Origin: a virus
Lineage: Duplodnaviria; Heunggongvirae; Uroviricota; Caudoviricetes
DNA length: 37,073 nucleotides
IMG/VR virus record: IMGVR_UViG_2778261421_000003
Span: 1 to 37,073 of that record
Reading direction: 5' to 3' (one strand)
A program made the translations under genes and the position numbers. How positions within the stretch are numbered: position 1 is the first letter of the stretch; each line of letters opens with the position of its first letter. The notes below the pieces were generated by a model, which was not told the origin of the DNA, made no database searches, and saw only the letters and a program-made list of their open reading frames with translations. Shown here piece by piece: positions 825 to 28,314 of the stretch.

Positions 825-1994
825 ATGGGAAAGAATAGTCAACGTAGGCGAGATAATAAAATTAAGCGAGAAAATGAGAAAAAAAGAAACTTAGCGGCAA
901 AGATAAATAAAATGTTGTATATAAAGCCTGATATATTTTTTGATGAATCAGGTAATACTGGCGGAAATTTACTCGATCCATTGCAACCTGTTTTTACCTT
1001 AAGTTCAAGTAGTATTAGTAAACAGGATGCGCTTAAGGCATTAGAACTAACCGGAAGCAAGTCTCCAACAGAAGCCCACTTTAAAACTCTTAGACGTAGA
1101 AAATCTGGTCAGGATGGCATCATTAGGCTTCTTGAAAGCAAATATGTCAATGAAGAGAATGTTAAAATATACTTGGTCGATAAAAAATACATGCTAACAG
1201 CAAAGATTGTTGATATTTTGATCGAGACGTGGTGCTCTAATAGAGGAATAGATCTTTATATAAATGGACAGAATCTAGCTCTGTCTAATGTTTACTATTT
1301 CTGTTTCCCTGCTTTCTGTGGGGAGGAAAAAACAGAGGTAATGTATCAGTGTTTTATGAATATGATCAGAAGCCAATCGACTGAGTCAATTGATGAATTT
1401 TACAGGGTAATTGATGAGTTAAAGATATGCTCAAGTGATAAGATATTCACAGATATAATAAACAGAATTAGTATTACCAGAAGCGATATTGATGATATAT
1501 TGGAAGGTGTTGAGAAAAGCACATTAGATCCATCTATACCAAGCCTCTTTAGACACTGTGTAGAATGGGGTAAATTATACCCTAATGGTTTTTATATTAA
1601 GCATGACGATTCCAAAGCTATTACAGAGAAGAAAGATATTTTTGATAAATTTATGGATATATCAAAAATTACGGAGGCATATGGTTATGATCGAAGAAAA
1701 TTTGAATTGCCAATTAAAGCTCGTTCTTTGACATTCCATTCATCACAAGAGTATCCTCAATTACAAATTGTAGATATAGTAGCAAGTGCGGCTGCTTATT
1801 ATGTTAACTGTCTAAAAAGAAATGACTTAGAAGATTATCTCTTTAAAGAACTTCAAAGAATAAAAATAGATAACTATTTTAAAAATATGGCCATTTGGCC
1901 TACAACATATGTTACACCTCAAGAATTAGGCACAATTTATACTGGTGGGCGAAACCCTGCAGATGGAGTCGCTGATTATCTTTCTCAATATTAG
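825..1994 (+). CDS. Hypothetical 389-aa protein with DUF3800-like motifs; candidate accessory or anti-phage defence protein
   Basis: Long ORF in a markedly AT-rich island between ogr and D, on the opposite strand to both. Near the N-terminus is YIKPDIFFDESGNTG, and near the C-terminus LQIVDIVASAAAYY, which match my recollection of the DUF3800 family motifs. Has its own promoter-like hexamers and RBS, and a downstream hairpin. Confidence 0.6.
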   Translation: MGKNSQRRRDNKIKRENEKKRNLAAKINKMLYIKPDIFFDESGNTGGNLLDPLQPVFTLSSSSISKQDALKALELTGSKSPTEAHFKTLRRRKSGQDGIIRLLESKYVNEENVKIYLVDKKYMLTAKIVDILIETWCSNRGIDLYINGQNLALSNVYYFCFPAFCGEEKTEVMYQCFMNMIRSQSTESIDEFYRVIDELKICSSDKIFTDIINRISITRSDIDDILEGVEKSTLDPSIPSLFRHCVEWGKLYPNGFYIKHDDSKAITEKKDIFDKFMDISKITEAYGYDRRKFELPIKARSLTFHSSQEYPQLQIVDIVASAAAYYVNCLKRNDLEDYLFKELQRIKIDNYFKNMAIWPTTYVTPQELGTIYTGGRNPADGVADYLSQY

Positions 1995-5643: not shown

Positions 5644-8437
5644 TATCCGGGTCGCTTTCAGCGCCGTTGACAGGCTGACCCGGCCTGCCGAAAACGCCCG
5701 CCGCCTGATGGGGCAGTTTGGTGACTCCATCCAGCGAACGCAGGGGGCGATCAAAAATCTCGAGCGTCAGGCGCGTTCATTTGAGCGCGCCCGTGACGCT
5801 GTCAGTAAAGCGGATGCGGGCATCGTGAAAGCACGACGCCAGCTTAACGCCCTTAATCAGTTACAACGCACGGGTACAGTGCTCAGCGAAAAACAACAAA
5901 AGCTGATGCAGCAGTTAAGCACCCGGCTTGAACGCCTGAATGAATCGCGCACACGGGAAATTCAGAAAATGCGGGAACTTGGCGGAGAGCTGAAACGCCA
6001 CGGCATTTCCCTGACAGGCAGCGATAACACCATCCAGCAGGCCATCAGACGCACCGAACAGTACAACAACCAGCTTGAACGCGAACGGCAGGCGCTTGCG
6101 CGTGTAACGCGGGCGCGTGAGCGGTATTCGCGCGCGCAGGAAACCGCGGGAAAACTGAAAACAGGTGGTGCGCTGACAATTGGTGCGGCAGCGGCTGGCG
6201 GCTATGCTGCCGGGCGTTTTTTGCAGCCTGCGATCGGGTTCGGGAAAGAGATGTCCCGCGTTCAGGCACTGACGCGAATCGACAAAAACAGCCCGCAGTT
6301 TAAGGCGCTGCGTGAGCAGGCGTTAAAACTTGGCTCTGAAACACAGTTTACTGCGAGTGATGCCGCCAGTGGACAGAGCTTTCTGGCAATGGCTGGTTTT
6401 ACTCCGCAGGCCATTCAGGCCGCATTGCCCGGTGTTCTTAATATGGCGCTGGCAGGTGGCGTCGAACTCGGCGAGACGGCGGATATAGGCTCCAATATCC
6501 TCACACAGTTCAACCTGACAGCCGATCAAATGGACCGGGTTGGCGATACGCTGACAGCGGCATTCACCCGGACCAATACTGATTTACGCGCGCTGGGCGA
6601 AACCATGAAGTATACCGGTCCGGTTGCCGCAAAACTTGGTATCAGTCTTGAAGAAGCGGCAGCCATGGCCGGGATGCTTGCCAATAATGGTCTTCGCGGA
6701 AGCGATGCTGGTACGGCCATGCGCGCAAGTCTGTCCCGCCTTGCATCACCGCCAAAAGCTGCGGCTGATGCACTGAAAGAGCTGGGGGTGTCAGTTGCTG
6801 ACGCCAGAGGCAAAATGCGCCCGATGGAGGATGTGCTGCTTGATCTCTATAAGGCGACACAAAAATACGGACAGGTGGACCAGGTCTCCTTCTTCAAGGA
6901 CATCGCCGGAGAAGAGGCGTTCGTTGGTTTGCAGACGCTTGTTGCGGCGGCTGGTTCAGGAGAGCTGCAAAAACTGACCAGAGAATTGCAGGGGGCAAGG
7001 GGAGAGTCCGATCGCGTTGCAAAAGTAATGGCCGATAATCTTGATGGGGACCTGAAAAATCTCGACAGCGCATGGGAAGGTCTTCGTATTCGCATCAGTG
7101 ATCTGGTTGACGGTCCGCTGCGTTCTGTCACGCAGTGGCTCACGCGGGTGCTTGAAAAAGTCACCTCGCTGGCGCAGGCCCATCCGGTACTGACGCGCCA
7201 GCTACTGATAGCAGGCGGTGCGTTGCTGGCAATGACTGCAACGATTGGCTCGTTGTCGCTGGTTATTGGGGTGCTTTACGGGAAGCTGGCCACCCTGCGT
7301 CTTGGTTTTGACATTCTTACCCGGTCAATGAATGTCGTCAGGGTGTTGCCTGCGCTGTGGGGAATGGTGACGGGTTCCGTTTCTTTGCTGGGAGGCGCTA
7401 TCGGGGCGCTGTTCAGTCCGGTCGGATTGATTGCTGCTGCGTTTGTGGCTGCGGCGGTTCTCATCTGGAAATACTGGGAACCCATTAAGGCGTTTTATGC
7501 CGGGGTGTTCAACGGGATTATGGAAAGGCTGAACCCGTTGCGCGAAACCTTTGAACGGTTTGGTCCTGTTTTTGACGCAATCGGAAGCGGGATCAGCCAG
7601 GTGTTTAACTGGTTTAAATCGCTGCTGTCACCGATGGAATCCAGCAAGGAAACGCTGGATAAATGTACCAGTGCTGGCGAGATATTCGGTAACGTTCTTG
7701 GCGGTGCGTTACAACTTGTTCTGACGCCTGCAAAAATGTTGCTGGATACGCTGGCGTGGATACTTGAAAAACTTGGCGTCCTTCCGGATGAAGCGGAAAG
7801 GGCGCGCAAGAAAATCGAAGACGCACAGCGTGCGGCCATTCTTCAGGACAAGGTTGCCTTACTTCAGGGGGACCTGGCGAAAATCAATCCGCCGAAGCCT
7901 GTGGAAAATGGCAATGGCACCGGAGGTGATAAACCCAAAGACAACAAACCGCTCACAGACAGCAATACCGGGACGCTGCGCAGACTCAGCAAAATTGCTG
8001 ATAACACAGGTAAGCTGGTTGATGAGACGAAAAAACGCATTGGCCCCGGCGATATTGTCTTTAAGAACCTGCCCCGCGCACTTGCTGTTCGTGGGGAGTG
8101 GCAGGAGCGGAAGATTGCGCAGGTCAGTAAGCCTGCCCCCGCAATTAATATCACACCCGTGGTTCCGGCTCCGCTGCCTCCGGCGCTGGTCCCTGTTGTT
8201 GCGGCCAGCTCCCGCCCGGTGGCGGAGGCCATACGATCGCCAGTGGCATCAGTTCCTGCAACTTCCCGTAACCGGGAGCCTGTTGCCTCCGGATTTGGCG
8301 GTGAAATTCATGTTCATCTGCATAACATTGTTACACAGAATCCCCGCGAACTGGCGAAACTGGTCGGTGAAATGGTTAGGGCAGAAATGGAACGGCGCGC
8401 CCGTGCCGGGCGTGGCAGTTTTTACGATAAAGATTGA
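5621..8437 (+). CDS. T: Tail tape measure protein (gpT)
   Basis: 938 aa with a coiled-coil-rich N-terminal half, Gly/Ala-rich hydrophobic segments and central transmembrane-like stretches. Sits between E/E' and U. Confidence 0.85.
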   Translation: MQTMKTLDIRVAFSAVDRLTRPAENARRLMGQFGDSIQRTQGAIKNLERQARSFERARDAVSKADAGIVKARRQLNALNQLQRTGTVLSEKQQKLMQQLSTRLERLNESRTREIQKMRELGGELKRHGISLTGSDNTIQQAIRRTEQYNNQLERERQALARVTRARERYSRAQETAGKLKTGGALTIGAAAAGGYAAGRFLQPAIGFGKEMSRVQALTRIDKNSPQFKALREQALKLGSETQFTASDAASGQSFLAMAGFTPQAIQAALPGVLNMALAGGVELGETADIGSNILTQFNLTADQMDRVGDTLTAAFTRTNTDLRALGETMKYTGPVAAKLGISLEEAAAMAGMLANNGLRGSDAGTAMRASLSRLASPPKAAADALKELGVSVADARGKMRPMEDVLLDLYKATQKYGQVDQVSFFKDIAGEEAFVGLQTLVAAAGSGELQKLTRELQGARGESDRVAKVMADNLDGDLKNLDSAWEGLRIRISDLVDGPLRSVTQWLTRVLEKVTSLAQAHPVLTRQLLIAGGALLAMTATIGSLSLVIGVLYGKLATLRLGFDILTRSMNVVRVLPALWGMVTGSVSLLGGAIGALFSPVGLIAAAFVAAAVLIWKYWEPIKAFYAGVFNGIMERLNPLRETFERFGPVFDAIGSGISQVFNWFKSLLSPMESSKETLDKCTSAGEIFGNVLGGALQLVLTPAKMLLDTLAWILEKLGVLPDEAERARKKIEDAQRAAILQDKVALLQGDLAKINPPKPVENGNGTGGDKPKDNKPLTDSNTGTLRRLSKIADNTGKLVDETKKRIGPGDIVFKNLPRALAVRGEWQERKIAQVSKPAPAINITPVVPAPLPPALVPVVAASSRPVAEAIRSPVASVPATSRNREPVASGFGGEIHVHLHNIVTQNPRELAKLVGEMVRAEMERRARAGRGSFYDKD

Positions 8438-8443
8438 GGAGTC

Positions 8444-8938
8444 ATGGCCATGATGATGATCTACGGCATGTTTGTTTTTGAGCTGCGCACGCTGCCGCAT
8501 CAGCAGTTACAGCAAAACAAAAGCTGGCGGCATGTGAAAAATGAACGCGTTAACCGTTCAGCAGGCTGGCAGTATATCGGCGCAGGTGATGATCGCATTG
8601 TGCTTTCCGGCGTGCTTTATCCTGAAATTACAGGTGGCGAAGTGTCGCTTTCGTTGCTGACCACGCAGGCATATACAGGACGCCCCTGGCCTCTGATTGA
8701 TGGTGTCGGGCAGATTTACGGCATGTATGTACTGACTGAAACGAATACGACCCGTTCCGAGTTTGATCGCTATGGTAAGGCGAAAAAGATAGAATTTTCA
8801 CTGACTCTTGAACGCTGTGATGAGGATTTGCGGGAGCGCCTGCAATCCTCATCGTTCAGCGATATGCTGTCCGGCTTCAAAGATAAAGTGACATCATCTC
8901 TTAACAGCGCGGCCAGCTCCGTTAAAGGGCTGTTTTGA
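8444..8938 (+). CDS. U: Tail protein gpU
   Basis: 164 aa directly after the tape measure gene; size and position match P2 U. Confidence 0.75.
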   Translation: MAMMMIYGMFVFELRTLPHQQLQQNKSWRHVKNERVNRSAGWQYIGAGDDRIVLSGVLYPEITGGEVSLSLLTTQAYTGRPWPLIDGVGQIYGMYVLTETNTTRSEFDRYGKAKKIEFSLTLERCDEDLRERLQSSSFSDMLSGFKDKVTSSLNSAASSVKGLF

Positions 8939-8945
8939 TTAACGC

Positions 8946-8975
8946 AAAACCGCTAATGGTCAGATTAGCGGTTTT
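8946..8975. terminator. Palindromic hairpin shared by the convergent U and invertase genes
   Basis: Perfect 12-bp stem AAAACCGCTAAT / ATTAGCGGTTTT with a 6-nt loop, followed by TTTTCATTTTCC. The invertase stop codon lies inside the stem. Confidence 0.5.
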
Positions 8976-9564
8976 CATTTTCCTGAGTCTGCCTGGTTGT
9001 TTCTTCAGCCTGTATATCGCCTACAGGGTGATAACGATAAATCGTCGATATGCCGATGTCGTAAATGATCGCCAGTTGTTTCCTGTCATGACCGTTTTTA
9101 ATCAGCCTCGCTATTTGCTCGTGTTGTTCTTTTGTCAACTTCGGGCGACGTCCGCCAATGCGTCCTTGTGCGCGTGCTGCTGCCAGCCCGGCCAGTGTAC
9201 GCTCTACAATTAATTCACGTTCCATTTCGGCTAAAGCCCCCATGACGTGAAAAAAGAAACGCCCCATGGGTGTTGACGTGTCAATGCTGTCCGTCAGACT
9301 ACGGAAATTAACACCTTTTTCCCGCAATTCCTCAATAAGCGTGATCAGGTGTTTCATACTTCTGCCCAGTCTGTCCAGCTTCCAGACAACCAGCGTATCT
9401 CCTTCTGATAGCGTTCTGAGCAGTTTTTTCAATCCCGGTCTGGTTGATTTCGTTCCGCTGATTTTATCTTCAAAAATCAGTTCACATCCTGCGCAGTTCA
9501 GTGCATTGCGTTGTAAATCCGTGTTCTGGTCGTTTGTTGACACACGAATATAGCCAATTTGCAT
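8965..9564 (-). CDS. pin: Serine DNA invertase of the Hin/Gin/Cin/Pin family
   Basis: True start is the ATG at 9562-9564 (MQIGYIRVSTNDQNTDLQ), giving the catalytic-serine motif of small serine recombinases and a C-terminal HTH (GISTIYRY). The upstream extension in the ORF track is rejected. Confidence 0.85.
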   Translation of the reverse strand: MQIGYIRVSTNDQNTDLQRNALNCAGCELIFEDKISGTKSTRPGLKKLLRTLSEGDTLVVWKLDRLGRSMKHLITLIEELREKGVNFRSLTDSIDTSTPMGRFFFHVMGALAEMERELIVERTLAGLAAARAQGRIGGRRPKLTKEQHEQIARLIKNGHDRKQLAIIYDIGISTIYRYHPVGDIQAEETTRQTQENENR

Positions 9565-9578
9565 AAAAAACATCCTCT

Positions 9579-10097
9579 TTGTTTCGTGAAAAATACAGAG
9601 TTGGTATAGGTAGGGATAAAAACGAAAACGTTGGTTTGGGGGAAGGCTCTGCATTGCCTGTTGGTGTACCGGTTCCGTGGCCCACCGCCACACCGCCAGA
9701 AGGCTGGTTAAAGTGCGACGGGCGCGCCTTTACAAAAGAACAATATCCTGTTCTGGCCAGAGCCTACCCGACCCTCCGTCTTCCCGATTTACGCGGTGAA
9801 TTTATTCGTGGCTGGGATGACGGACGTGGTGTGGATGCCGGGCGACAATTATTATCTTCACAGGGGGATGCAATAAGAAATATTGAGGGATTCGCAGATG
9901 GCGGGATCGGTATGTCTTTTGATGCAATCAGAGGGGCTTTTTACGATGCAGGAACACGATCAGCGAGAATGCCGAATAACACAACTACTATAGACAAAAC
10001 CGATGACCTTGGATTCGACGCCTCTCGTGTCGTGCCAACAGCTAATGAAAACCGTCCTCGTAATATTGCCTTTAATTATATCGTAAGGGCGGCATAA
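9579..10097 (+). CDS. Promoterless alternative tail-fibre C-terminal cassette 1 (inverted orientation)
   Basis: Encodes LGLGEGSALPVGVPVPWPTATPPEGWLKCDGRAFTKEQYPVLA ... NIAFNYIVRAA, sharing both its first 65 aa and its last 12 aa with the C-terminus of the minus-strand fibre gene H. The middle is divergent. Confidence 0.6.
   Translation: MFREKYRVGIGRDKNENVGLGEGSALPVGVPVPWPTATPPEGWLKCDGRAFTKEQYPVLARAYPTLRLPDLRGEFIRGWDDGRGVDAGRQLLSSQGDAIRNIEGFADGGIGMSFDAIRGAFYDAGTRSARMPNNTTTIDKTDDLGFDASRVVPTANENRPRNIAFNYIVRAA
9625..9830 (+). repeat. Conserved 5' cassette repeat containing crossover candidate A
   Basis: About 200 bp nearly identical to 10096-10310 and to the reverse complement of 11510-11721. 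Begins AAAACGTTGGTTTGGGGGAAGGCTC, which contains a GGTTT half-site like hix/gix sites. Confidence 0.6.
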
Positions 10098-10310
10098 AAA
10101 CGTTGGTTTGGGGGAAGGCTCGGCGCTGCCCGTTGGTGTACCTGTTCCGTGGCCCACTGCCACACCGCCAGCAGGCTGGTTAAAGTGCGACGGGCGCGCC
10201 TTTACAAAAGAACAATATCCTGTTCTGGCCAGAGTCTACCCGACCCTCCGTCTTCCCGATTTACGCGGTGAGTTTATCCGTGGATGGGACGACGGGCGCA
10301 AAGTTGATAC
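10096..10310 (+). repeat. Conserved 5' cassette repeat containing crossover candidate B
   Basis: Direct repeat of 9625-9830 and inverted repeat of 11510-11721. Confidence 0.6.
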
Positions 10311-10620
10311 AGGACGTAAGTTGCTGTCCGCACAAGGGGCAACGCTGTTAAGAACAGCAATGCTGGATTATTATAACCAGGACACTACGGGAACCTCGGG
10401 GATAGTCGGCATGGGATTCAACAATGAAGATTCCATTACAGACCTTCGTGAGGGCAGCTTTAAAATGCCGGACGGGACAACATTCAGCGATCCTGTCATA
10501 GCAATGTCAGACAATGGTATGCAGGCTACTATTCTGACCTCTATCAGAAGCGGGTATGCGAAGGGTATCACTGTCAGACCCCGTAGCATTGCACTTAATT
10601 ACATTGTGAGGGCAGTTTAA
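10108..10620 (+). CDS. Promoterless alternative tail-fibre C-terminal cassette 2 (inverted orientation)
   Basis: Same conserved head (GEGSALPVGVPVPWPTATPPAGWLKCDGRAFT) and tail (SIALNYIVRAV) with a different middle. Directly followed by a tail fibre assembly gene. Confidence 0.6.
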   Translation: MGEGSALPVGVPVPWPTATPPAGWLKCDGRAFTKEQYPVLARVYPTLRLPDLRGEFIRGWDDGRKVDTGRKLLSAQGATLLRTAMLDYYNQDTTGTSGIVGMGFNNEDSITDLREGSFKMPDGTTFSDPVIAMSDNGMQATILTSIRSGYAKGITVRPRSIALNYIVRAV

Positions 10621-11234
10621 TGAGTAACACTGCAGTTCTGGATGAAAACGGTATCGCCACTGTAGCGGGCGATATCACTGTATATCACTATGACGAGGAA
10701 ACCCGGGAATACACCTCATCCTCTGTGGAGTATCTCGCCCTTGGGGTGGGTACTCCGGCACATTCGTGCGCCGATGCACCGCCGGAGGCAATTTCGGGTT
10801 ACGTGGTTTGCCGGACTGCCACGCTGAACGGGTGGGAGCATGTGCCTGATCACCGCGGCGAGACGGTATACAGCACGGAGAACGGTAACCCCGTTCTGAT
10901 TACCCAACCGGGTGATTACCCGGCGGACACCACCACAAAACAGCCAGCCACGCCATGGGATACCTGGAACGGTGAGGCGTGGGTAACCGATACTGAACGG
11001 CAGCGAACCGCAGAACTGGAGGTTGCCAGACAGCAACGCCAGCAACGGGTGAAACAGGCGATGGCGTCCGTCGATCTTATCAACCTCAAACTGCGTGCTG
11101 GTCGCAGTCTGACACCAGAAGAAACGGCAAAACTGAACGCCGTGCTGGATTATATCGACGAGCTGAACGCACTGGATATCAGCACGGCACCTGAAATCAG
11201 CTGGCCGGAAGCGCCACTGGCACTTGCCAGTTGA
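10620..11234 (+). CDS. Tail fibre assembly chaperone (Tfa, P2 gpG-like)
   Basis: 204 aa; the C-terminal region (APEISWPEAPLA, ERQRTAELEVARQQRQQR) resembles P2 G and Tfa proteins. Co-oriented with cassette 2 and opposite to the current H gene. Confidence 0.7.
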   Translation: MSNTAVLDENGIATVAGDITVYHYDEETREYTSSSVEYLALGVGTPAHSCADAPPEAISGYVVCRTATLNGWEHVPDHRGETVYSTENGNPVLITQPGDYPADTTTKQPATPWDTWNGEAWVTDTERQRTAELEVARQQRQQRVKQAMASVDLINLKLRAGRSLTPEETAKLNAVLDYIDELNALDISTAPEISWPEAPLALAS

Positions 11235-11240
11235 ACGGTA

Positions 11241-12965
11241 TCACGCCGCCCTCACGATATAGTTAAACGCGATATTGCGGGGGCGGGTTATGTTAAAGAA
11301 TGCTCCGTTTAATTCGGCTTTTGCGCGACTGTTTGTTCCACCCAGTATTGCGTACCACAAATAATCGCTACGGTAATTCCCCGCAAACACCTTATCGCCG
11401 CCATAGTCAATATTATTTCCGTTACTCATGTACGAGATATCAAGCGCAGAATCGTTATCGTCATGACCGCCGACCAGTGTACCTTTCTGCCATGAAAGCA
11501 ACTTACGCCCCTCGTCAATCTTGCGCCCGTCGTCCCATCCACGGATAAACTCACCGCGTAAATCGGGAAGACGGAGGGTCGGGTAGACTCTGGCCAGAAC
11601 AGGATATTGTTCTTTGGTGAACGTAGCTCCGTTGCACTGTAACCAGCCTGCTGGCGGTGTGGCGGTGGGCCATGGAACCGGTACACCAACAGGCAATGCA
11701 GAGCCTTCCCCCAAACCAAGGTAATTGAGGACATCTTTTATACTGCCCTTAGCGATAATAGCGCGACCAATAGCTGTAAGGGTTGCCAGCGCTGCGCGGT
11801 CTGCTCCGGTAAAATAAGGCAACCGATCTGCTGCAGTGGCAAGTCCTGCCAGAGCAGTGAGCGTGGCATCTGCCGGTTGTTTTCCGTTTGCCAGATCGTA
11901 TGCATCCTTGACCGCTTTCGGTGTGGCGGCCAGTATTTCAGACGTGCTGTTGATGGCATTGCTCAGTTGTACGGTGCCTTTTGCCGTCAGCGAGGCAGCA
12001 GGCACTCCCGTTATCTGACTCCATGGGTGAGTGTGGCTGACGGGGGCCTTGCCGGCTGCAAGGTCGTATGCCGCCTTGACGGCCTTTGGTGTGGCGGCCA
12101 GCGTTTCAGACGTGCTGTTGATGTCACTGCTCAATTGTACGGTGCCTTTTGCCGTCAGCGAGGCAGCAGGGACTCCCGTTATCTGACTCCACGGATGAGT
12201 GTGGCTGACGGGGGCCTTGCCGGCTGCAAGGTCGTATGCCGCCTTGACGGCTTTTGGTGTGGCGGCCAGCGTTTCAGAGGTGCTGTTGGTGGCACTGCTC
12301 AGTTGTACGATCCCTTTACGGGTCGTTGTTGCATCCTGGGCTGTGTATTTTCCCCAGGCCAGATCATACGCGATTTTCACAGCCTTCGGCGTGGCAGCCT
12401 CAGTTTCTGATTGACTGTCCGTGGCACTGCTAAGTTGAACAAAGCCTTTTGCGGTCAGCGAGGCGTCCGGGTGACGTCGTGACTGCTCGTGCTCTGATAT
12501 TTTATCATCCACATATTTGCGGGTTGCCAGAACCACAGACGGGTCGATTTTCAGCGTGATGGCTTCGGTGTTCGTGACAACCAGAATCATGCGGATAGTC
12601 TGGGTGCGTCCACTGCCTTCCTGCAACTGCGGTTTGTACGTTTCCGGGCAGTTTGCCACCGCAATGAGTACACCTTTATCATCATAAAGACCAATCTCAC
12701 GGATCCAGAATCCTCCCTCGCTTTCAGGGATGATTTGCTCCGCAATAATCTGGCTCTGATTGTTAGGGTCAACACTCAGAAGATTCAGCGGTGCAATGCG
12801 TTTCTGGTTAATCAGTTTTGTTTGTGCAGGGTCTGGTGTTGGTAACACACCATTTGCATCACCAACGGCCATTTGCGTCAGATTCAGCTTACTGCCGAGC
12901 ATCGTCGCGTTAGCCAGTCGTGCCGCGCCCTGATTAGTCAGAATGGCGTAGTATTTCACTGTCAT
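11241..12965 (-). CDS. H: Tail fibre protein gpH with the currently expressed C-terminal cassette 3
   Basis: 574 aa; the N-terminus resembles P2 H, the middle has tandem repeats, and the C-terminal 135 aa carry the cassette head and the FNYIVRAA tail. Confidence 0.85.
   Translation of the reverse strand: MTVKYYAILTNQGAARLANATMLGSKLNLTQMAVGDANGVLPTPDPAQTKLINQKRIAPLNLLSVDPNNQSQIIAEQIIPESEGGFWIREIGLYDDKGVLIAVANCPETYKPQLQEGSGRTQTIRMILVVTNTEAITLKIDPSVVLATRKYVDDKISEHEQSRRHPDASLTAKGFVQLSSATDSQSETEAATPKAVKIAYDLAWGKYTAQDATTTRKGIVQLSSATNSTSETLAATPKAVKAAYDLAAGKAPVSHTHPWSQITGVPAASLTAKGTVQLSSDINSTSETLAATPKAVKAAYDLAAGKAPVSHTHPWSQITGVPAASLTAKGTVQLSNAINSTSEILAATPKAVKDAYDLANGKQPADATLTALAGLATAADRLPYFTGADRAALATLTAIGRAIIAKGSIKDVLNYLGLGEGSALPVGVPVPWPTATPPAGWLQCNGATFTKEQYPVLARVYPTLRLPDLRGEFIRGWDDGRKIDEGRKLLSWQKGTLVGGHDDNDSALDISYMSNGNNIDYGGDKVFAGNYRSDYLWYAILGGTNSRAKAELNGAFFNITRPRNIAFNYIVRAA
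11510..11721 (-). repeat. Conserved cassette repeat inside H containing crossover candidate C (inverted relative to A and B)
   Basis: Reverse complement of 11701-11721 is CCTTGGTTTGGGGGAAGGCTC, matching the starts of repeats A and B. Confidence 0.6.
11830..12420. repeat. Tandem 168-bp (56-aa) repeats in the H shaft
   Basis: Units starting about 12001 and 12170 are nearly identical (protein repeat ...TAKGTVQLSS.INSTSE.LAATPKAVKAAYDLAAGKAPVSHTHPWSQITGVPAAS); more diverged copies flank them. Confidence 0.7.
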
Positions 12966-16506: not shown

Positions 16507-18387
16507 TTATGCTGCGGGATTATTGATTTCCAGCACCAGGCTGCCGATATCGACGCCGTACGCGGCATTTTTAGTGATATCAGTTAACGTCAGCGCATTC
16601 AGCCCCAGTGTCAGACTGTCTTTTATGACCTGGAATGCCGGGCCAGCCACTCCATTCAGTTTCGGAGTAACCGTGGCACTGCCGGCGGTGAACACCAGCT
16701 CCAGCGTCTGCCAGTCGTTACTGTAATTCCCGAACTCGCCCAACTTTGTGTTTCCGGCTTTCTTGTGATGCATCAGATTCAGTTTGCCGTCTGTGGTCTG
16801 GGTGAAGAACGACATCAGGAACGGGTTACCAGTCCCGGTCATCGCCACGACGTCAGGTAACGCTACATCGGTATACAGATAAATTCCCAGACCGAACTGG
16901 TTGTTGGTCAGTGCGCCTGACAGTCGAAACTTACAGCTCAGTCTGCCACCCCGTGTCAGCAGGGAGACTGCGTCATCCACCGGATGCATCAGGGACCAGG
17001 TTTTATTGCTCTGCTTGGTAACCTTAAACACACCATCTTCCAGCGCAACACTGCCGCCGGTGATGGTCCAGCCCTGCGCAGCAGCCTCTCCGGCTGTCGG
17101 CAGCAGGGAGACTGTACGAACGGATGTGTCACCATCAGACGGCCCCGATGGAGTGTCGCCGCCGGGCGAGGGTTTAATCTCCGGTGCGGTACCGCTGATG
17201 AAGGCGCTGGTTCGACCAACTGCGTTCAGAATAGCGGTTGCCAGGCGATCCGAAATAATGCCCCTGCGCGCCCATGAACTGAAATGTGTCGGACGATTTG
17301 ACGATACCCAATTACCATTACTACGGGATTGCGCGCCGTAATAACCTGCATCAGCAATATCCGGGTCTTCTGCCGGTAAGTTGGTGGGCGTGTTGTTGCC
17401 GTTACCGTCGGTCATGAACGGCACAAAGAAAACGTTGTCGCTCTCCCTGTTTTTGTACGCGCCGTAGACGGAGTCATACTGTGTGCCGTATGTGTTTTTC
17501 CAGTAATACGTCGTGTCGCCACAAATCCACGGTACAACTGCAGCACTGCCGCCATGGCACTGCGCGTTAAATCCGGAAAGGTCAGTACGGAACTGCTTCA
17601 GCATGGCCGTGAACAGGTCCGGTTGCTGTGCGTAGGTGGCAGCGCTCATGTCAAATTCGCCCTGCATCCAGCACACCGCCAGCAACACATTTTTCGGGTT
17701 CTTCTGTAATGCAGCTTTAGTGCGCGCAATCAGGTCCTGATATAACGGTTTACCCACACCCCAGCGCGCCGAATCCTGGCTGGCCCCCGTGGTCGTACTG
17801 AATGTTCCCTCCGCGCCCTGAGTGAATGCCGAACCACCACGACAGCATGGTACCAGCAGGATCCCCGCGTTATTCGGGATATACGGGAGCAGTTTTTTGG
17901 CAATATGTAAGCCCTGGCCGACACAGCCGTACTGCCCTTTGCTCAGGTCTGCCTTCGGATGATTCAGTGCGCTCATATCCTGAACATCATGCAGGCAGTG
18001 GTCTGCCGGAATGATGTCGTTAAATGCGCATGCTTTACCACCGGGAGTCACTGTGTTGCGACGGGCCAGTTGCTTAATGCGTGGGTGGGGCGCATCGTAA
18101 GAATCCGGCAGCGGCATTCCATCACCATATGACATGGCATTGGATTGACCAGCAAGTACCACCACGTAATACCACTCCGGCACGCTGCCGTGCTGGGGGG
18201 AATCAGGTGAGATGTCTGTAGTGCCATCGGCCACCATTGCCTGCATTAGATACCACGGGGTGCCGGGTTCGTAGGCAACCCGCGTCTCCCCCTGAAGATG
18301 CCACCCTTTCGCAAGATGTTCATTCACCTTTTGAGTCAGTTCAGCCTGTGTCATGGCTGTAATCAGTGCAAAGTTCTTACTGGTCAT
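16507..18387 (-). CDS. Prophage sialate O-acetylesterase-like protein (NanS-p-like): DUF1737-like N-terminus, SASA/SGNH esterase core, C-terminal beta-rich domain
   Basis: 626 aa. N-terminus MTSKNFALITAMTQAELTQKVNEHLAKGWHLQGE resembles DUF1737; VVVLAGQSNAMSYG is the GQSN motif of SASA-type esterases. Sits between lysC and R, where P2 has no gene. Confidence 0.6.
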   Translation of the reverse strand: MTSKNFALITAMTQAELTQKVNEHLAKGWHLQGETRVAYEPGTPWYLMQAMVADGTTDISPDSPQHGSVPEWYYVVVLAGQSNAMSYGDGMPLPDSYDAPHPRIKQLARRNTVTPGGKACAFNDIIPADHCLHDVQDMSALNHPKADLSKGQYGCVGQGLHIAKKLLPYIPNNAGILLVPCCRGGSAFTQGAEGTFSTTTGASQDSARWGVGKPLYQDLIARTKAALQKNPKNVLLAVCWMQGEFDMSAATYAQQPDLFTAMLKQFRTDLSGFNAQCHGGSAAVVPWICGDTTYYWKNTYGTQYDSVYGAYKNRESDNVFFVPFMTDGNGNNTPTNLPAEDPDIADAGYYGAQSRSNGNWVSSNRPTHFSSWARRGIISDRLATAILNAVGRTSAFISGTAPEIKPSPGGDTPSGPSDGDTSVRTVSLLPTAGEAAAQGWTITGGSVALEDGVFKVTKQSNKTWSLMHPVDDAVSLLTRGGRLSCKFRLSGALTNNQFGLGIYLYTDVALPDVVAMTGTGNPFLMSFFTQTTDGKLNLMHHKKAGNTKLGEFGNYSNDWQTLELVFTAGSATVTPKLNGVAGPAFQVIKDSLTLGLNALTLTDITKNAAYGVDIGSLVLEINNPAA

Positions 18388-26690: not shown

Positions 26691-27189
26691 AAGACAGCCT
26701 CCATTGATTTCTTTGCTCGTATTTTGCACTTATGAAGTATGGTCGGCAAGGTGCCGTATCGCTGACGCGCTTCGCTTGTCTGCTGCTTCGCCGGGGCATA
26801 AAAAATTTATGCCCCGGCTCTCCAGCTCCTGTATCAATCAGATAATTTCACGACGCCTTCCAGTTTATCGCCACCATCGACGGTCAGACTCTTACGCAAT
26901 TCCACCGCGTTGACTGTATGTTCTCGCTGCCTCAGTGCGATTTTGACGGCCTTACCTTTCACCCCATCAAATCAAAAGCCCTCACGCCTTTTTCATGCTC
27001 AGCGTGAGAAATACGGCCATTCTGTTGTGTCTCTGCGACATCGTTCAGGGAATGCTATTTACCCCCTGAAACGCGGGCTGTTCCCCCGTCACCTGCGCGC
27101 AGAAAAAACGCGTTTTTTTGTGCACGCACGGATCCCTGACGGATCCAGTCGCCACGCGGGCCGGAAGGGTAAAAAGTTGTTCAAAAAAA

Positions 27190-27227
27190 TTGTGCAAATT
27201 TGTGCACTATTGTGCGGTGTATAAAAT
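27190..27227 (+). promoter_or_regulatory. Three TTGTGC repeats at 10-bp spacing with a TATAAAAT box upstream of the antitoxin gene
   Basis: TTGTGC at 27190, 27200 and 27210, then TATAAAAT at 27220-27227. Could be a promoter with operator repeats for autoregulation. Confidence 0.35.
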
Positions 27228-27289
27228 GAAAATATGGCGGTGTTATTACTGCCCAACAAGCCGTTATACTTACGTTATGGGCGTGCATA

Positions 27290-27646
27290 ATGGAAATGAA
27301 TATGAAAACTGTAACTGATGATGAATTTCGTGAGAACCTGAGTGAAATTCTGGATTACCTTTCTTCCGGTGGCAGTGTCGTTATCACTGCGCAGGGAGGG
27401 AAGGATGTTGTTCTTGCTGGTTCTGATCTTAGTCCTGAAATACGGGCTGTCCTTGGCAAAACCAAAAAACTGCGGGATCAAATAAACAAAATGAAGCAAC
27501 CACTCTTAATAAATGCAGTGAGAGATCTGGAAAAACGTCATCCAGCTCTTGTCGCACAGAGAAAAAAAGGATTGTCTTTTGAAGATGCAATGAAGCGTAC
27601 AAGAGAAAAACATGCGGATATCATTAAAAAGCTTGAGGATAACTGA
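27290..27646 (+). CDS. Phd/YefM-like antitoxin (extended, about 118 aa)
   Basis: N-terminal region VTDDEFRENLSEILDYLSSGGSVVITAQGGKDVVLAG resembles Phd/YefM antitoxins. Stop overlaps the start of the Doc-like gene (TGATG). Alternative start at the ATG at 27302. Confidence 0.55.
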   Translation: MEMNMKTVTDDEFRENLSEILDYLSSGGSVVITAQGGKDVVLAGSDLSPEIRAVLGKTKKLRDQINKMKQPLLINAVRDLEKRHPALVAQRKKGLSFEDAMKRTREKHADIIKKLEDN

Positions 27647-28053
27647 TGGACATAGTGTTTTTGTCAAAAGAACAAGTAGAACGTATCCATGCTGAAACTT
27701 TACCCCAGAGCGGAAATGCCAATGACGGGCTACTTGAAGGTGCTTTAAATCGCGTCAGGACACTACACTACTATGAAGGGGTTGATGATATTCATGCTCT
27801 GGCTGCTATGTATTTGATTGGTATAGCCAAGGCTCATGCCTTTCATGATGGGAATAAACGCACAGCTTTTCAGGCTGCATCAATATTTTTAATGATGAAC
27901 TCTTCCGAACTTTCAAACTCCCTGCTGCTGGTTAAATTAACGGTGTTTTCAGCAATGGGGATAGCTACCCTTGAGGAAGTTACCTTTGCTTTGAAATTGC
28001 TGTCTGATTATGGCAATGAATTAATCAGCGACTACGAAGAAGATTATATTTAA
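27646..28053 (+). CDS. doc: Doc (Fic/Doc family) toxin
   Basis: 135 aa with HAFHDGNKRTAF, matching the Fic/Doc HxFx(D/N)GNKR catalytic motif. Translationally coupled to the upstream antitoxin. Confidence 0.75.
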   Translation: MDIVFLSKEQVERIHAETLPQSGNANDGLLEGALNRVRTLHYYEGVDDIHALAAMYLIGIAKAHAFHDGNKRTAFQAASIFLMMNSSELSNSLLLVKLTVFSAMGIATLEEVTFALKLLSDYGNELISDYEEDYI

Positions 28054-28314
28054 TGCTGGCATACTCTGTCGTGTTAAGACAACAGCCTTTGCGGAAACAG
28101 GGCAGGGTGCCAGACTTGCCCGCAGCGCGTCTGACATGAGCAGTTATTCATCTTTTTTATTGTTTTTCTCCATGCAGGGCGACAGTGCGTCCATGCCAGC
28201 TTGATGTTGGTGGAGCCGTCGTCGATACAAATTTTCATGTCGCTTTTCCTTATGTTGATTAATTAATCGGTTACAGGATTTTTAAATCCCGCTTTTGCCT
28301 GTTTTGTGCGCGCT

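Follow-up and report, generated by a model that had tools for sequence, protein, structure and literature searches.

The locus at positions 8,946 to 12,965 of the window, by which we mean the whole 37,073-nucleotide stretch of viral DNA analysed here, is with high probability (roughly 0.9) a DNA inversion switch with three sites and four states, which exchanges the receptor-binding tip on the tail fibre of a P88-like (Peduoviridae) prophage. This reading is carried by the anatomy of the locus, by in-frame fusions between the fibre gene and alternative tips, by natural isomers with exact breakpoints and by an intact enzyme. The same three-tip inversion system is already known, having been demonstrated experimentally in E. 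coli E2348/69 by Goldberg et al. (2014, Genome Med 6:112; PMC4272514), who described in a P2-like prophage of this EPEC strain three inverted repeats and two overlapping inversions and, by sequencing and PCR, four coexisting variants with three alternative C-termini. Both the principle and the specific architecture are published, and what the window contributes is an allele set rather than a new concept.

The tail-fibre gene H (11241-12965, minus strand) comprises a constant part (11720..12965), in which Pfam recognizes an N-terminal collar-fibre domain and four Phage_fiber_2 repeats and which contains tandem 168-nt repeats, and a cassette 3 (11241..11719, minus strand) that makes up the last 479 nt of the gene and, being fused to H, supplies the expressed tip; repeats and a domain search place its head at 11487-11719 and its variable part at 11241-11486. 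Two further cassettes, both with a Phage Tail Collar domain, lie on the plus strand and are silent as oriented: cassette 1 (9631..10097; head 9631-9867, variable tip and conserved tail 9868-10097) and cassette 2 (10103..10620; head 10103-10339, variable tip 10340-10620). Such silent cassettes are routinely annotated as 'phage tail protein' or as pseudogenes. A preliminary description of this DNA had already placed the third cassette on the minus-strand H and had given the cassettes conserved heads of some 200 bp, which are indeed long repeats of 229-243 nt with 84-89% identity: heads A and B form a direct repeat (243 nt, 88%), B and C an inverted one (229 nt, 89%), and A and C another inverted one (236 nt, 84%). 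Its succession of an invertase gene and two cassettes stands as far as the elements and their positions go, but the invertase lies on the minus strand and diverges from cassette 1. The conserved tail that it attributed to all three cassettes is likewise only partly borne out, since an alignment of six cassettes, those of the window and of EPEC, finds RPRNIAFNYIVRAA in cassettes 1 and 3, whereas cassette 2 has RPRSIALNYIVRAV instead.

The tip in cassette 3 matches that of T4 gp37 (PDB 2XGF) in a phmmer search (E=1.1e-14) that aligns the two collars and pairs NIAFNYIVRLA, at the C-terminus of gp37, with NIAFNYIVRAA of the tip; the layout of a gp37-type tip, namely collar, variable region and C-terminal NIAFNYIVR motif, is present. 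The tips are thus homologous to the T4 gp37 tip, though short, and the conserved head is the collar domain. In the published gp37 structure the tail reportedly packs back on the collar, the middle alone being free to vary.

Each of the three cassettes starts at a crossover site (TT GGTTTGGGGGAA), two of the sites being direct and one inverted. Site A (AAAACGAAAACG TT GGTTTGGGGGAA; 9619..9644, plus strand, core 9631-9632) and site B (GGCATAAAAACG TT GGTTTGGGGGAA; 10091..10116, plus strand, core 10103-10104), whose outer half and the cassette 1 stop codon overlap, are matched by site C on the minus strand (TCCTCAATTACC TT GGTTTGGGGGAA; 11706..11731, core 11718-11719). The 37 kb contain exactly three copies of the 16-mer TTGGTTTGGGGGAAGG, at 9631(+), 10103(+) and 11719(-), against a chance expectation of about 0.35 matches even with three mismatches allowed; these positions and the repeat search bear out the earlier proposal that repeats A and B are direct and C inverted. 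Mapping of the 26-bp sites, which the preliminary description had called for, shows that all three align with the annotated cixL/cixR of P1 and with the boundaries of the Mu G segment (gix sites): the window, P1 and Mu share the inner half-site GGTTTnnnGGAA/GAGAA, and the TT core is as in P1. Outer half-sites agree more weakly, with 5-8 of 12 positions matching the Mu and P1 outer halves in an alignment read by eye. As all three sites combine a TT core with the inner half GGTTTGGGGGAA, the same core is found at every partner site. Each is a 26-bp site, with 12-nt half-sites flanking the TT core, and sits at the boundary between the constant and variable parts of H, within the codons for ..Y-L-G-L-G-E-G; one Gin-family serine invertase would recombine all three.

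The enzyme itself (8965..9564, minus strand; 199 aa) is an intact serine DNA invertase of the Gin/Cin/Pin/Hin family (Resolvase, E=2.4e-51, plus HTH_7) with the layout of a small serine recombinase, i.e. a catalytic domain at the N-terminus, bearing the nucleophilic serine, and an HTH at the C-terminus. Residues 1-185 match the Mu Gin structures 3UJ3/4M6F (E=1e-90), the protein is 76% identical to the SfMu invertase, and its gene shares 99.3% nucleotide identity with that of the experimentally switching EPEC locus, with two amino-acid differences. The earlier caveat that the invertase might be inactive finds no support in the alignment to Gin, in which the protein is full length and Ser9, D64, R65 and R68 are all present. 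By homology to the annotated P1 cin enhancer, nucleotides 19-90 of the invertase gene (9475..9546, minus strand) are a candidate Fis-dependent recombinational enhancer: cin nt 19-90 are marked as the enhancer in the P1 record, and the window is 78% identical over this stretch as against 58% over the next 72 nt, although coding constraint confounds the comparison. A loose Fis consensus yields in the 5' end of the invertase gene one 15-mer, at gene nt 94-108, just outside 9475..9546, and no second Fis-like site 48 bp from the first.

On its downstream side the invertase is separated from gpU, identified via Pfam Phage_P2_GpU, by a hairpin between the two stop codons (8946..8975; a 12-pair stem followed by a T run in a terminator scan), which is probably a bidirectional intrinsic terminator. 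On the other side, a 66-nt spacer (9565..9630) outside the invertible DNA runs from the start codon of the invertase to site A, carries the ribosome-binding site of the invertase, and is 100% identical across all isomers and EPEC; 66-67 nt likewise separate gin from the right G-segment boundary (gixR) in Mu, and a Min-like recombinase has the same spacing. A P2-type late-promoter dyad in this spacer (TGT-N12-ACA, 9580-9597) was considered as a plus-strand driver of the tail-fibre assembly gene and rejected, as the window holds 8 matches to the pattern versus 9.2 expected; it is further discounted by the lack of any such dyad at the P/O divergent late promoter region and by its absence from the corresponding spacer in the Min-like system.

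With three sites in both orientations, one invertase and overlapping invertible segments, the locus has the makings of a multiple-inversion system. Site C, which lies in H, has the opposite orientation to A and B, so that a CxB crossover would flip 1.6 kb and a CxA crossover 2.1 kb; the latter would invert the middle site too and thereby make its pairing with the invertase-proximal site possible. Four isomers would result, in which H is fused to tip 3 (the window), to tip 2, or, in two of them, to tip 1. Enzymes of the Hin/Gin family require inverted sites and a Fis-bound enhancer, and for this reason the direct-repeat sites A and B would normally be left unresolved. The suggestion that inversion of C with B or with A fuses H to cassette 2 or 1 holds on both counts, on paper and in nature. 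Crossover at the TT core gives an uninterrupted H::cassette-2 frame for CxB and an uninterrupted H::cassette-1 frame for CxA, and three of the four predicted states are observed in the same prophage, recognized in other complete E. coli genomes by T, U, invertase, Tfa, I and J proteins identical to those of the window. The BxC-inverted state is found in DA33135 and CMZE027, the double-inversion state in AVS0225 and three further genomes; the H::cassette-2 junction occurs in the same prophage at loci L004 and L005, and the H::cassette-1 fusion, 100% identical, in NZ_OZ040015 and the AVS0225-type genomes. In these natural isomers the outer half-sites are swapped reciprocally and exactly at the core, while the heads are unaltered. 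The fourth state with the exact cassette set of the window (H::var1, B-var2, Tfa, var3') was not found intact, an aberrant NZ_OZ040015 coming nearest; its layout is present in TUM13770, where the first cassette differs. Counting complete E. coli genomes with at least 80% junction coverage, H is joined to tip 1 in 15, to tip 2 in 283 and to tip 3 in 81. The prophage hosting the locus is of the P88/P2-like type of E. coli. Isomers with reciprocal exact junctions, together with the switching in culture of a 99.3% identical EPEC system, argue that inversion between the sites does occur, and the behaviour of the relatives makes it likely that the window's own strain switches as well.

The locus has a single tail-fibre assembly gene. 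Tfa (10620..11234, plus strand; Caudo_TAP, PF02413, E=5.5e-28) directly follows a fibre tip, its ATG overlapping the stop codon of cassette 2 and its ribosome-binding site, as read from the sequence, lying within the ...VRA codons. As the preliminary description had it, this is the sole Tfa-like ORF in the whole window, and the expressed tip has no co-oriented Tfa: in the present orientation Tfa, on the plus strand, converges on H, with the two stop codons 6 nt apart. Carried on the var2-Tfa/var3 segment (var1 to var3 being the variable tips), Tfa has the orientation of H in only two of the four states, and there the two would be co-transcribed. A sequence search of Tfa against PDB chains gave no significant match, and BLASTP against Mu U no similarity; tblastn of the var3 tip against a phage collection returned two matches only and is uninformative on the cognate Tfa. 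A sigma-70 scan of 8400-12000 found a single weak site, inside cassette 1, which is fewer than chance predicts.

One Tfa may serve all three tips. A doubtful but by no means negligible reading takes the two states that place Tfa antisense to H (that of the window, and H::tip 1 with tip 3 in sense) as yielding badly assembled fibres, a low-infectivity 'off' condition unless another prophage gives Tfa. T4 gp37-type tips need gp38/Tfa-type chaperones, an established requirement that speaks for such a condition, as do the convergence of the only Tfa in the window with H, the lack of a convincing plus-strand promoter upstream of Tfa, and a var1-like tip of another prophage that directly precedes its own Tfa, 53% identical to the window's. 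It has to be set against this that the one-Tfa layout is kept in the window and in EPEC though their Tfa genes are 66% identical in nucleotides and their tips unrelated, that every Tfa-less cassette is still intact, that a different recombinase also serves the var2-Tfa/var3 module as a two-state system and P1-like plasmids carry the module too, and that 81 genomes have H::var3 as their assembled state. Taken together, the conserved layout, the intact cassettes, the recurrence of the module and these 81 genomes suggest that the Tfa-less tips are functional. It seems unlikely, for its part, that one Tfa co-transcribed in two of the four states means, for three unrelated tips, that tips 1 and 3 fold with no chaperone dedicated to them or are supplied with Tfa by an unrecognised route, for which read-through of the T-U convergent late operon, flipping among replicating copies and the Tfa of other prophages are candidates; were it so, the inversion switch would set the supply of chaperone alongside tip identity.

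Rearrangement of the locus by homologous recombination that depends on RecA and uses the heads (roughly 230 bp, 84-93% identical), with the invertase irrelevant or inactive, is a very improbable account of the isomers. Two-cassette relatives with mosaic heads do point in its direction, L010 having a C/B head and L011 an A-like 5' part with a B-like 3' part that fits a deletion of cassette 1 by homologous recombination, and we conclude from these mosaic heads that homologous recombination also acts on the repeats. In L004, L005 and L006, however, each head is 100% identical to that of its own cassette, the exchange is confined to the first 19 nt, core included, with the outer half-sites reciprocally swapped, and the invertase is intact. 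In EPEC, moreover, all four variants occur inside clonal colonies and the small inversion is near 50% (PMC4272514), a level well beyond what RecA typically achieves on diverged repeats. That the locus is a frozen relic, with cassettes 1 and 2 decaying fragments and the orientation fixed in the window's strain, deserves hardly any credence: PGAP does call silent cassettes partial pseudogenes ('incomplete') in several genomes, but the reading frame runs open from the site to the conserved tail in each of the six cassettes of the window and EPEC, although the two sets diverge by about 25% in nucleotides, identical prophages are found in different states, and neither the enzyme nor any of the three sites is damaged.

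An inversion switch so understood makes the locus a clean natural case of host-range bet-hedging. As E. coli prophages and P1-like plasmids widely carry the switch, its recognition is an aid to annotation, and the tip sets should be helpful for picking tips to retarget P2-type particles and tailocins.

Among known systems, the closest is the EPEC E2348/69 locus (NC_011601 1891695-1893703), which shares with the window the prophage family, an identical gpI protein, the 100% identical 66-nt spacer, the site sequences and the arrangement of three cassettes with one Tfa, but differs in its heads (73-77% identical), in its unalignable variable parts and in its Tfa (66% nt); the EPEC reference genome carries a different isomer from the window, the same as that of AVS0225. 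The two-state switches, i.e. Mu G/Gin, P1 C/Cin, e14 P/Pin and the P88 segment, have in common with the window the enzyme family, the 26-bp site architecture and the placement of a site where the constant part of the fibre gene gives way to the variable part; in Mu, too, about 66 nt lie between one site and the invertase gene beyond it. They differ, P88 included, in having two sites, two states and one Tfa per tip (Sv-U / U'-Sv'), whereas the window has three short gp37-like tips and one Tfa.

The comparison drawn in the preliminary description with Min and with shufflons is apt as regards multiple inversion of the Min type, while the shufflon is a mere analogy. The Min system of p15B has six crossover sites. 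Sandmeier et al. are said to have described this multiple-inversion system of plasmid p15B in 1990 and 1992. Like the window, Min (p15B and the Min-like arrays of P1-like phage-plasmids) has one Gin-family invertase and more than two sites in both orientations, and its overlapping invertible segments exchange the 3' ends of the tail-fibre gene. The Min-like array of pKY1497_2 even contains var1, var2, Tfa and var3 at 99.7-100% identity, with a single Tfa; it departs from the window in its recombinase (190 aa, about 74% nt identity), its P1-like replicon and its larger number of cassettes. In its mode of action the system at this locus corresponds to Min of p15B and to Mu G/Gin. With R64-type shufflons it shares multiple inversions that shuffle adhesin C-termini, a functional resemblance only: the R64 shufflon uses the tyrosine recombinase Rci on sfx sites, whereas the only recombinase of the window locus is a serine invertase, and because its enzyme is a serine recombinase the system is not a true shufflon.

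The invertible tail-fibre tip system flagged in the preliminary description is real, and its interpretation there is correct. The window is a 'P2-like' E. coli prophage (Peduoviridae; P88 / Xuanwuvirus group). Across the locus it is 100% identical to NZ_CP124487 (strain AVS0542), and a comparison of 25 kb with phage P88 gave 94.7% identity over 74% of that length. The locus is the meeting point of two late operons: FI-FII-E-T-U on the plus strand, ending at gpU (8444-8938), and V-W-J-I-H on the minus strand, ending at the tail-fibre gene H (11241-12965). All the listed elements were found, namely an invertase gene on the minus strand (8965-9564; Resolvase and HTH_7 domains), cassettes 1 and 2 with a single Tfa (tail-fibre assembly) gene on the plus strand, and cassette 3 within H on the minus strand. 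The cassette heads, each opened by one of the crossover sites A, B and C, are repeats of 229-243 nt with 84-89% identity, A and B being direct and C inverted, as had been claimed; the 16-mer TTGGTTTGGGGGAAGG has exactly three copies in the window, where about 0.35 would be expected even allowing three mismatches. The conserved tail ascribed to all three cassettes holds for cassettes 1 and 3 (RPRNIAFNYIVRAA) but reads RPRSIALNYIVRAV in cassette 2. Neither a second Tfa nor a fourth head was found in the window by tblastn. A strong hairpin at 8946-8975, beginning exactly where the preliminary description had started the system, lies where gpU and the invertase gene converge, between their stop codons, and is probably a bidirectional terminator.

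The three junctions were aligned to the annotated P1 cixL and cixR sites, whose crossover positions are given in the record, and to the Mu G-segment boundaries, which carry gix sites. Sites A (AAAACGAAAACG TT GGTTTGGGGGAA), B (GGCATAAAAACG TT GGTTTGGGGGAA) and C (TCCTCAATTACC TT GGTTTGGGGGAA) share one core and one inner half-site, the outer half-sites being weaker; set against the P1 sites (CAATCCTAAACC TT GGTTTAAGAGAA and TTATCCAATACC TT GGTTTAAGAGAA) and the Mu site (TTATCCAAAACC TC GGTTTACAGGAA), they therefore display the architecture of the family. The core falls in the H codons for ..NY-LG-LGEG, and when the constant part of H is joined there to cassette 1 or 2 the predicted frame stays open through to the conserved tail. 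Over its full length the invertase aligns to Mu Gin (PDB 3UJ3/4M6F; E ~1e-90), with Ser9 retained, and its identity to the SfMu invertase is 76%. A stretch of 66 nt separates its start codon from the site A core, the same distance as lies between gixR, the right G-segment boundary, and gin in Mu, and between the Min-like recombinase of P1-like plasmids and its site. The identity pattern is compatible with a candidate Fis enhancer in the invertase gene: over cin nt 19-90, annotated as the recombinational enhancer in the P1 record, the window and P1 are 78% identical, against 58% over the following 72 nt. Coding constraint confounds this comparison, however, and a loose Fis consensus returned one Fis-like site only.

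That H can be fused to the other two cassettes is borne out by natural isomers. Among 5,426 complete E. coli genomes queried with the predicted junctions and counted at 80% or more query coverage at one place, 15 had H::tip1 (a single genome at 100% identity), 283 had H::tip2 and 81 had H::tip3. More telling still, one and the same prophage, its T, U, invertase, Tfa, I and J proteins identical throughout, is found as different isomers: the window state in AVS0542 and JBEHAAB-19-0176; the BxC inversion, with H::tip2 followed by Tfa, in DA33135 and CMZE027; and the double-inversion state, in which H::tip1 goes with a sense tip 3 and an antisense Tfa and head B adjoins the invertase spacer, in AVS0225, EC190759, KUN2017-0933 and EC08. 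In TUM13770, where the first cassette is a different one, the elements have the fourth layout (H::tipX, then head B-var2 and Tfa, with antisense var3 beside the spacer). Homologous recombination between the head repeats does not account for the clean isomers: every head is 100% identical to that of its own cassette in all isomers of the same prophage, and all three outer half-sites are swapped reciprocally with the breakpoint exactly at the TT core, so that the crossover falls no further than 19 nt into the head, as site-specific recombination predicts.

Homologous recombination nevertheless also acts on the heads. Some relatives (L010, L011 and L013) have two cassettes only, cassette 1 being missing; the head on var2 is a mosaic in L010 (5' C, 3' B) and in L011 (5' A-like, 3' B-like), the latter being what would remain if heads A and B of the fourth state had undergone homologous recombination with each other. 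These relatives show homologous recombination or gene conversion among cassette heads, with loss of cassette 1. Two further loci are aberrant. One (NZ_CP023849, E. coli 4/0, 951948-960767) is 100% identical to the window in invertase, spacer, cassettes 1-2, Tfa and cassette 3, lacks H, and continues at the site C core into the spacer of another recombinase, Cin/Min-like, and its gene (WP_000904922.1), with aroA-serC next; the arrangement suggests that crossover sites belonging to two distinct invertase systems recombined, by deletion or by a large inversion. The other (NZ_OZ040015, 3088759-3098406) carries H::A-var1, B-var2 and Tfa nt 1-586, then an abrupt junction, about 48 nt of head B and inverted var1 with head A, so that cassette 3 is missing and cassette 1 duplicated; it reflects either illegitimate recombination or misassembly of a mixed population.

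In phage P88 itself the segment is of the classical Mu type (Sv-U / U'-Sv') and includes two Tfa genes, in contrast to the one Tfa of the window. On the P1-like plasmid pKY1497_2 (NZ_AP019805, 54373-65020), var1, var2, Tfa and var3 are 99.7-100% identical to the window, the plasmid having in addition a fourth cassette, its recombinase being a different one of Cin/Min-like type, and its Tfa gene likewise the only one; P2-like prophages thus have tip cassettes in common, almost unchanged, with P1-like plasmids. Under the same Cin/Min-like recombinase the var2-Tfa/var3 module is also found by itself, forming a two-state switch. On these grounds the system is a Gin-family member that operates like Min of p15B; the proposed likeness to shufflons is one of function only, and the system is no shufflon in the strict sense, since shufflons employ a tyrosine recombinase.

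This architecture has already been published and experimentally validated. Goldberg et al. 2014, sequencing clonal EPEC E2348/69 cultures, described in a P2-like prophage two overlapping inversions among three 215-bp inverted repeats beginning ACCTTGGTTTGGGGGAAGGCTCTGCA, with four PCR-confirmed variants and one protein with three alternative C-termini, the large inversion being in forward orientation in about 90% and the small one in 49 +/- 37% (PMC4272514). The EPEC locus (NC_011601, 1887500-1897500) belongs to the same prophage family: its invertase is 99.3% identical in nucleotides (two amino acid differences), its spacer is 100% identical, its three site sequences are the same, and its three cassettes and one Tfa follow the AVS0225-type layout. 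The differences are confined to the cassette alleles (heads 73-77%, Tfa 66% in nucleotides, variable parts unalignable).

The tip is homologous to the receptor-binding tip of T4 gp37 (PDB 2XGF; E=1.1e-14). The gp37 collar domain aligns with the cassette head, and the final gp37 residues, NIAFNYIVRLA, with the cassette tail. In gp37 the chain reportedly runs out and back, its C-terminus returning to the collar, from which confinement of variation to the middle would follow. The constant part of H contains, at 11880-12384, tandem 168-nt repeats encoding Phage_fiber_2 repeats, and prophages that are otherwise nearly identical have H genes anywhere between 1545 and 1824 nt long, suggesting that repeat copy number, and hence fibre shaft length, varies.

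The only residual question of the locus is chaperone supply. Of the four states, two (H::tip2; H::tip1 then B-var2) place Tfa in the same orientation as H; in the other two it is antisense to H, among them the state of the window, whose expressed tip indeed has no co-oriented Tfa. No convincing plus-strand promoter was found. A need for the chaperone is suggested by gp37-type tips, which classically require one, and by a var1-like tip of another prophage that is directly followed by its own Tfa, 53% identical to that of the window, with a conserved C-terminal and a variable N-terminal half. Conversely, the intactness of all Tfa-less cassettes and the retention of a one-Tfa layout in both the window and EPEC despite deep divergence suggest that tips without Tfa are functional. 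The explanation we favour, as a guess, is that one Tfa acts on every tip by way of the conserved collar and tail, and that the antisense states may either produce it weakly or receive it in trans.

Elsewhere in the window, a 626-aa ORF (16507-18387, minus strand; DUF1737, SASA or sialate O-acetylesterase-like, and DUF6645 domains) lies inside the late operon, flanked by lysis/tail-completion and baseplate genes; its product may be a surface-glycan esterase, as cargo or virion enzyme. A DUF3800 gene (825-1994, plus strand), probably cargo, adjoins gpD near the prophage end. A Phd/Doc-type toxin-antitoxin pair lies at 27290-28053 (plus strand) and 27023-28084, and three of the eight TGT-N12-ACA dyads in the window cluster around it.
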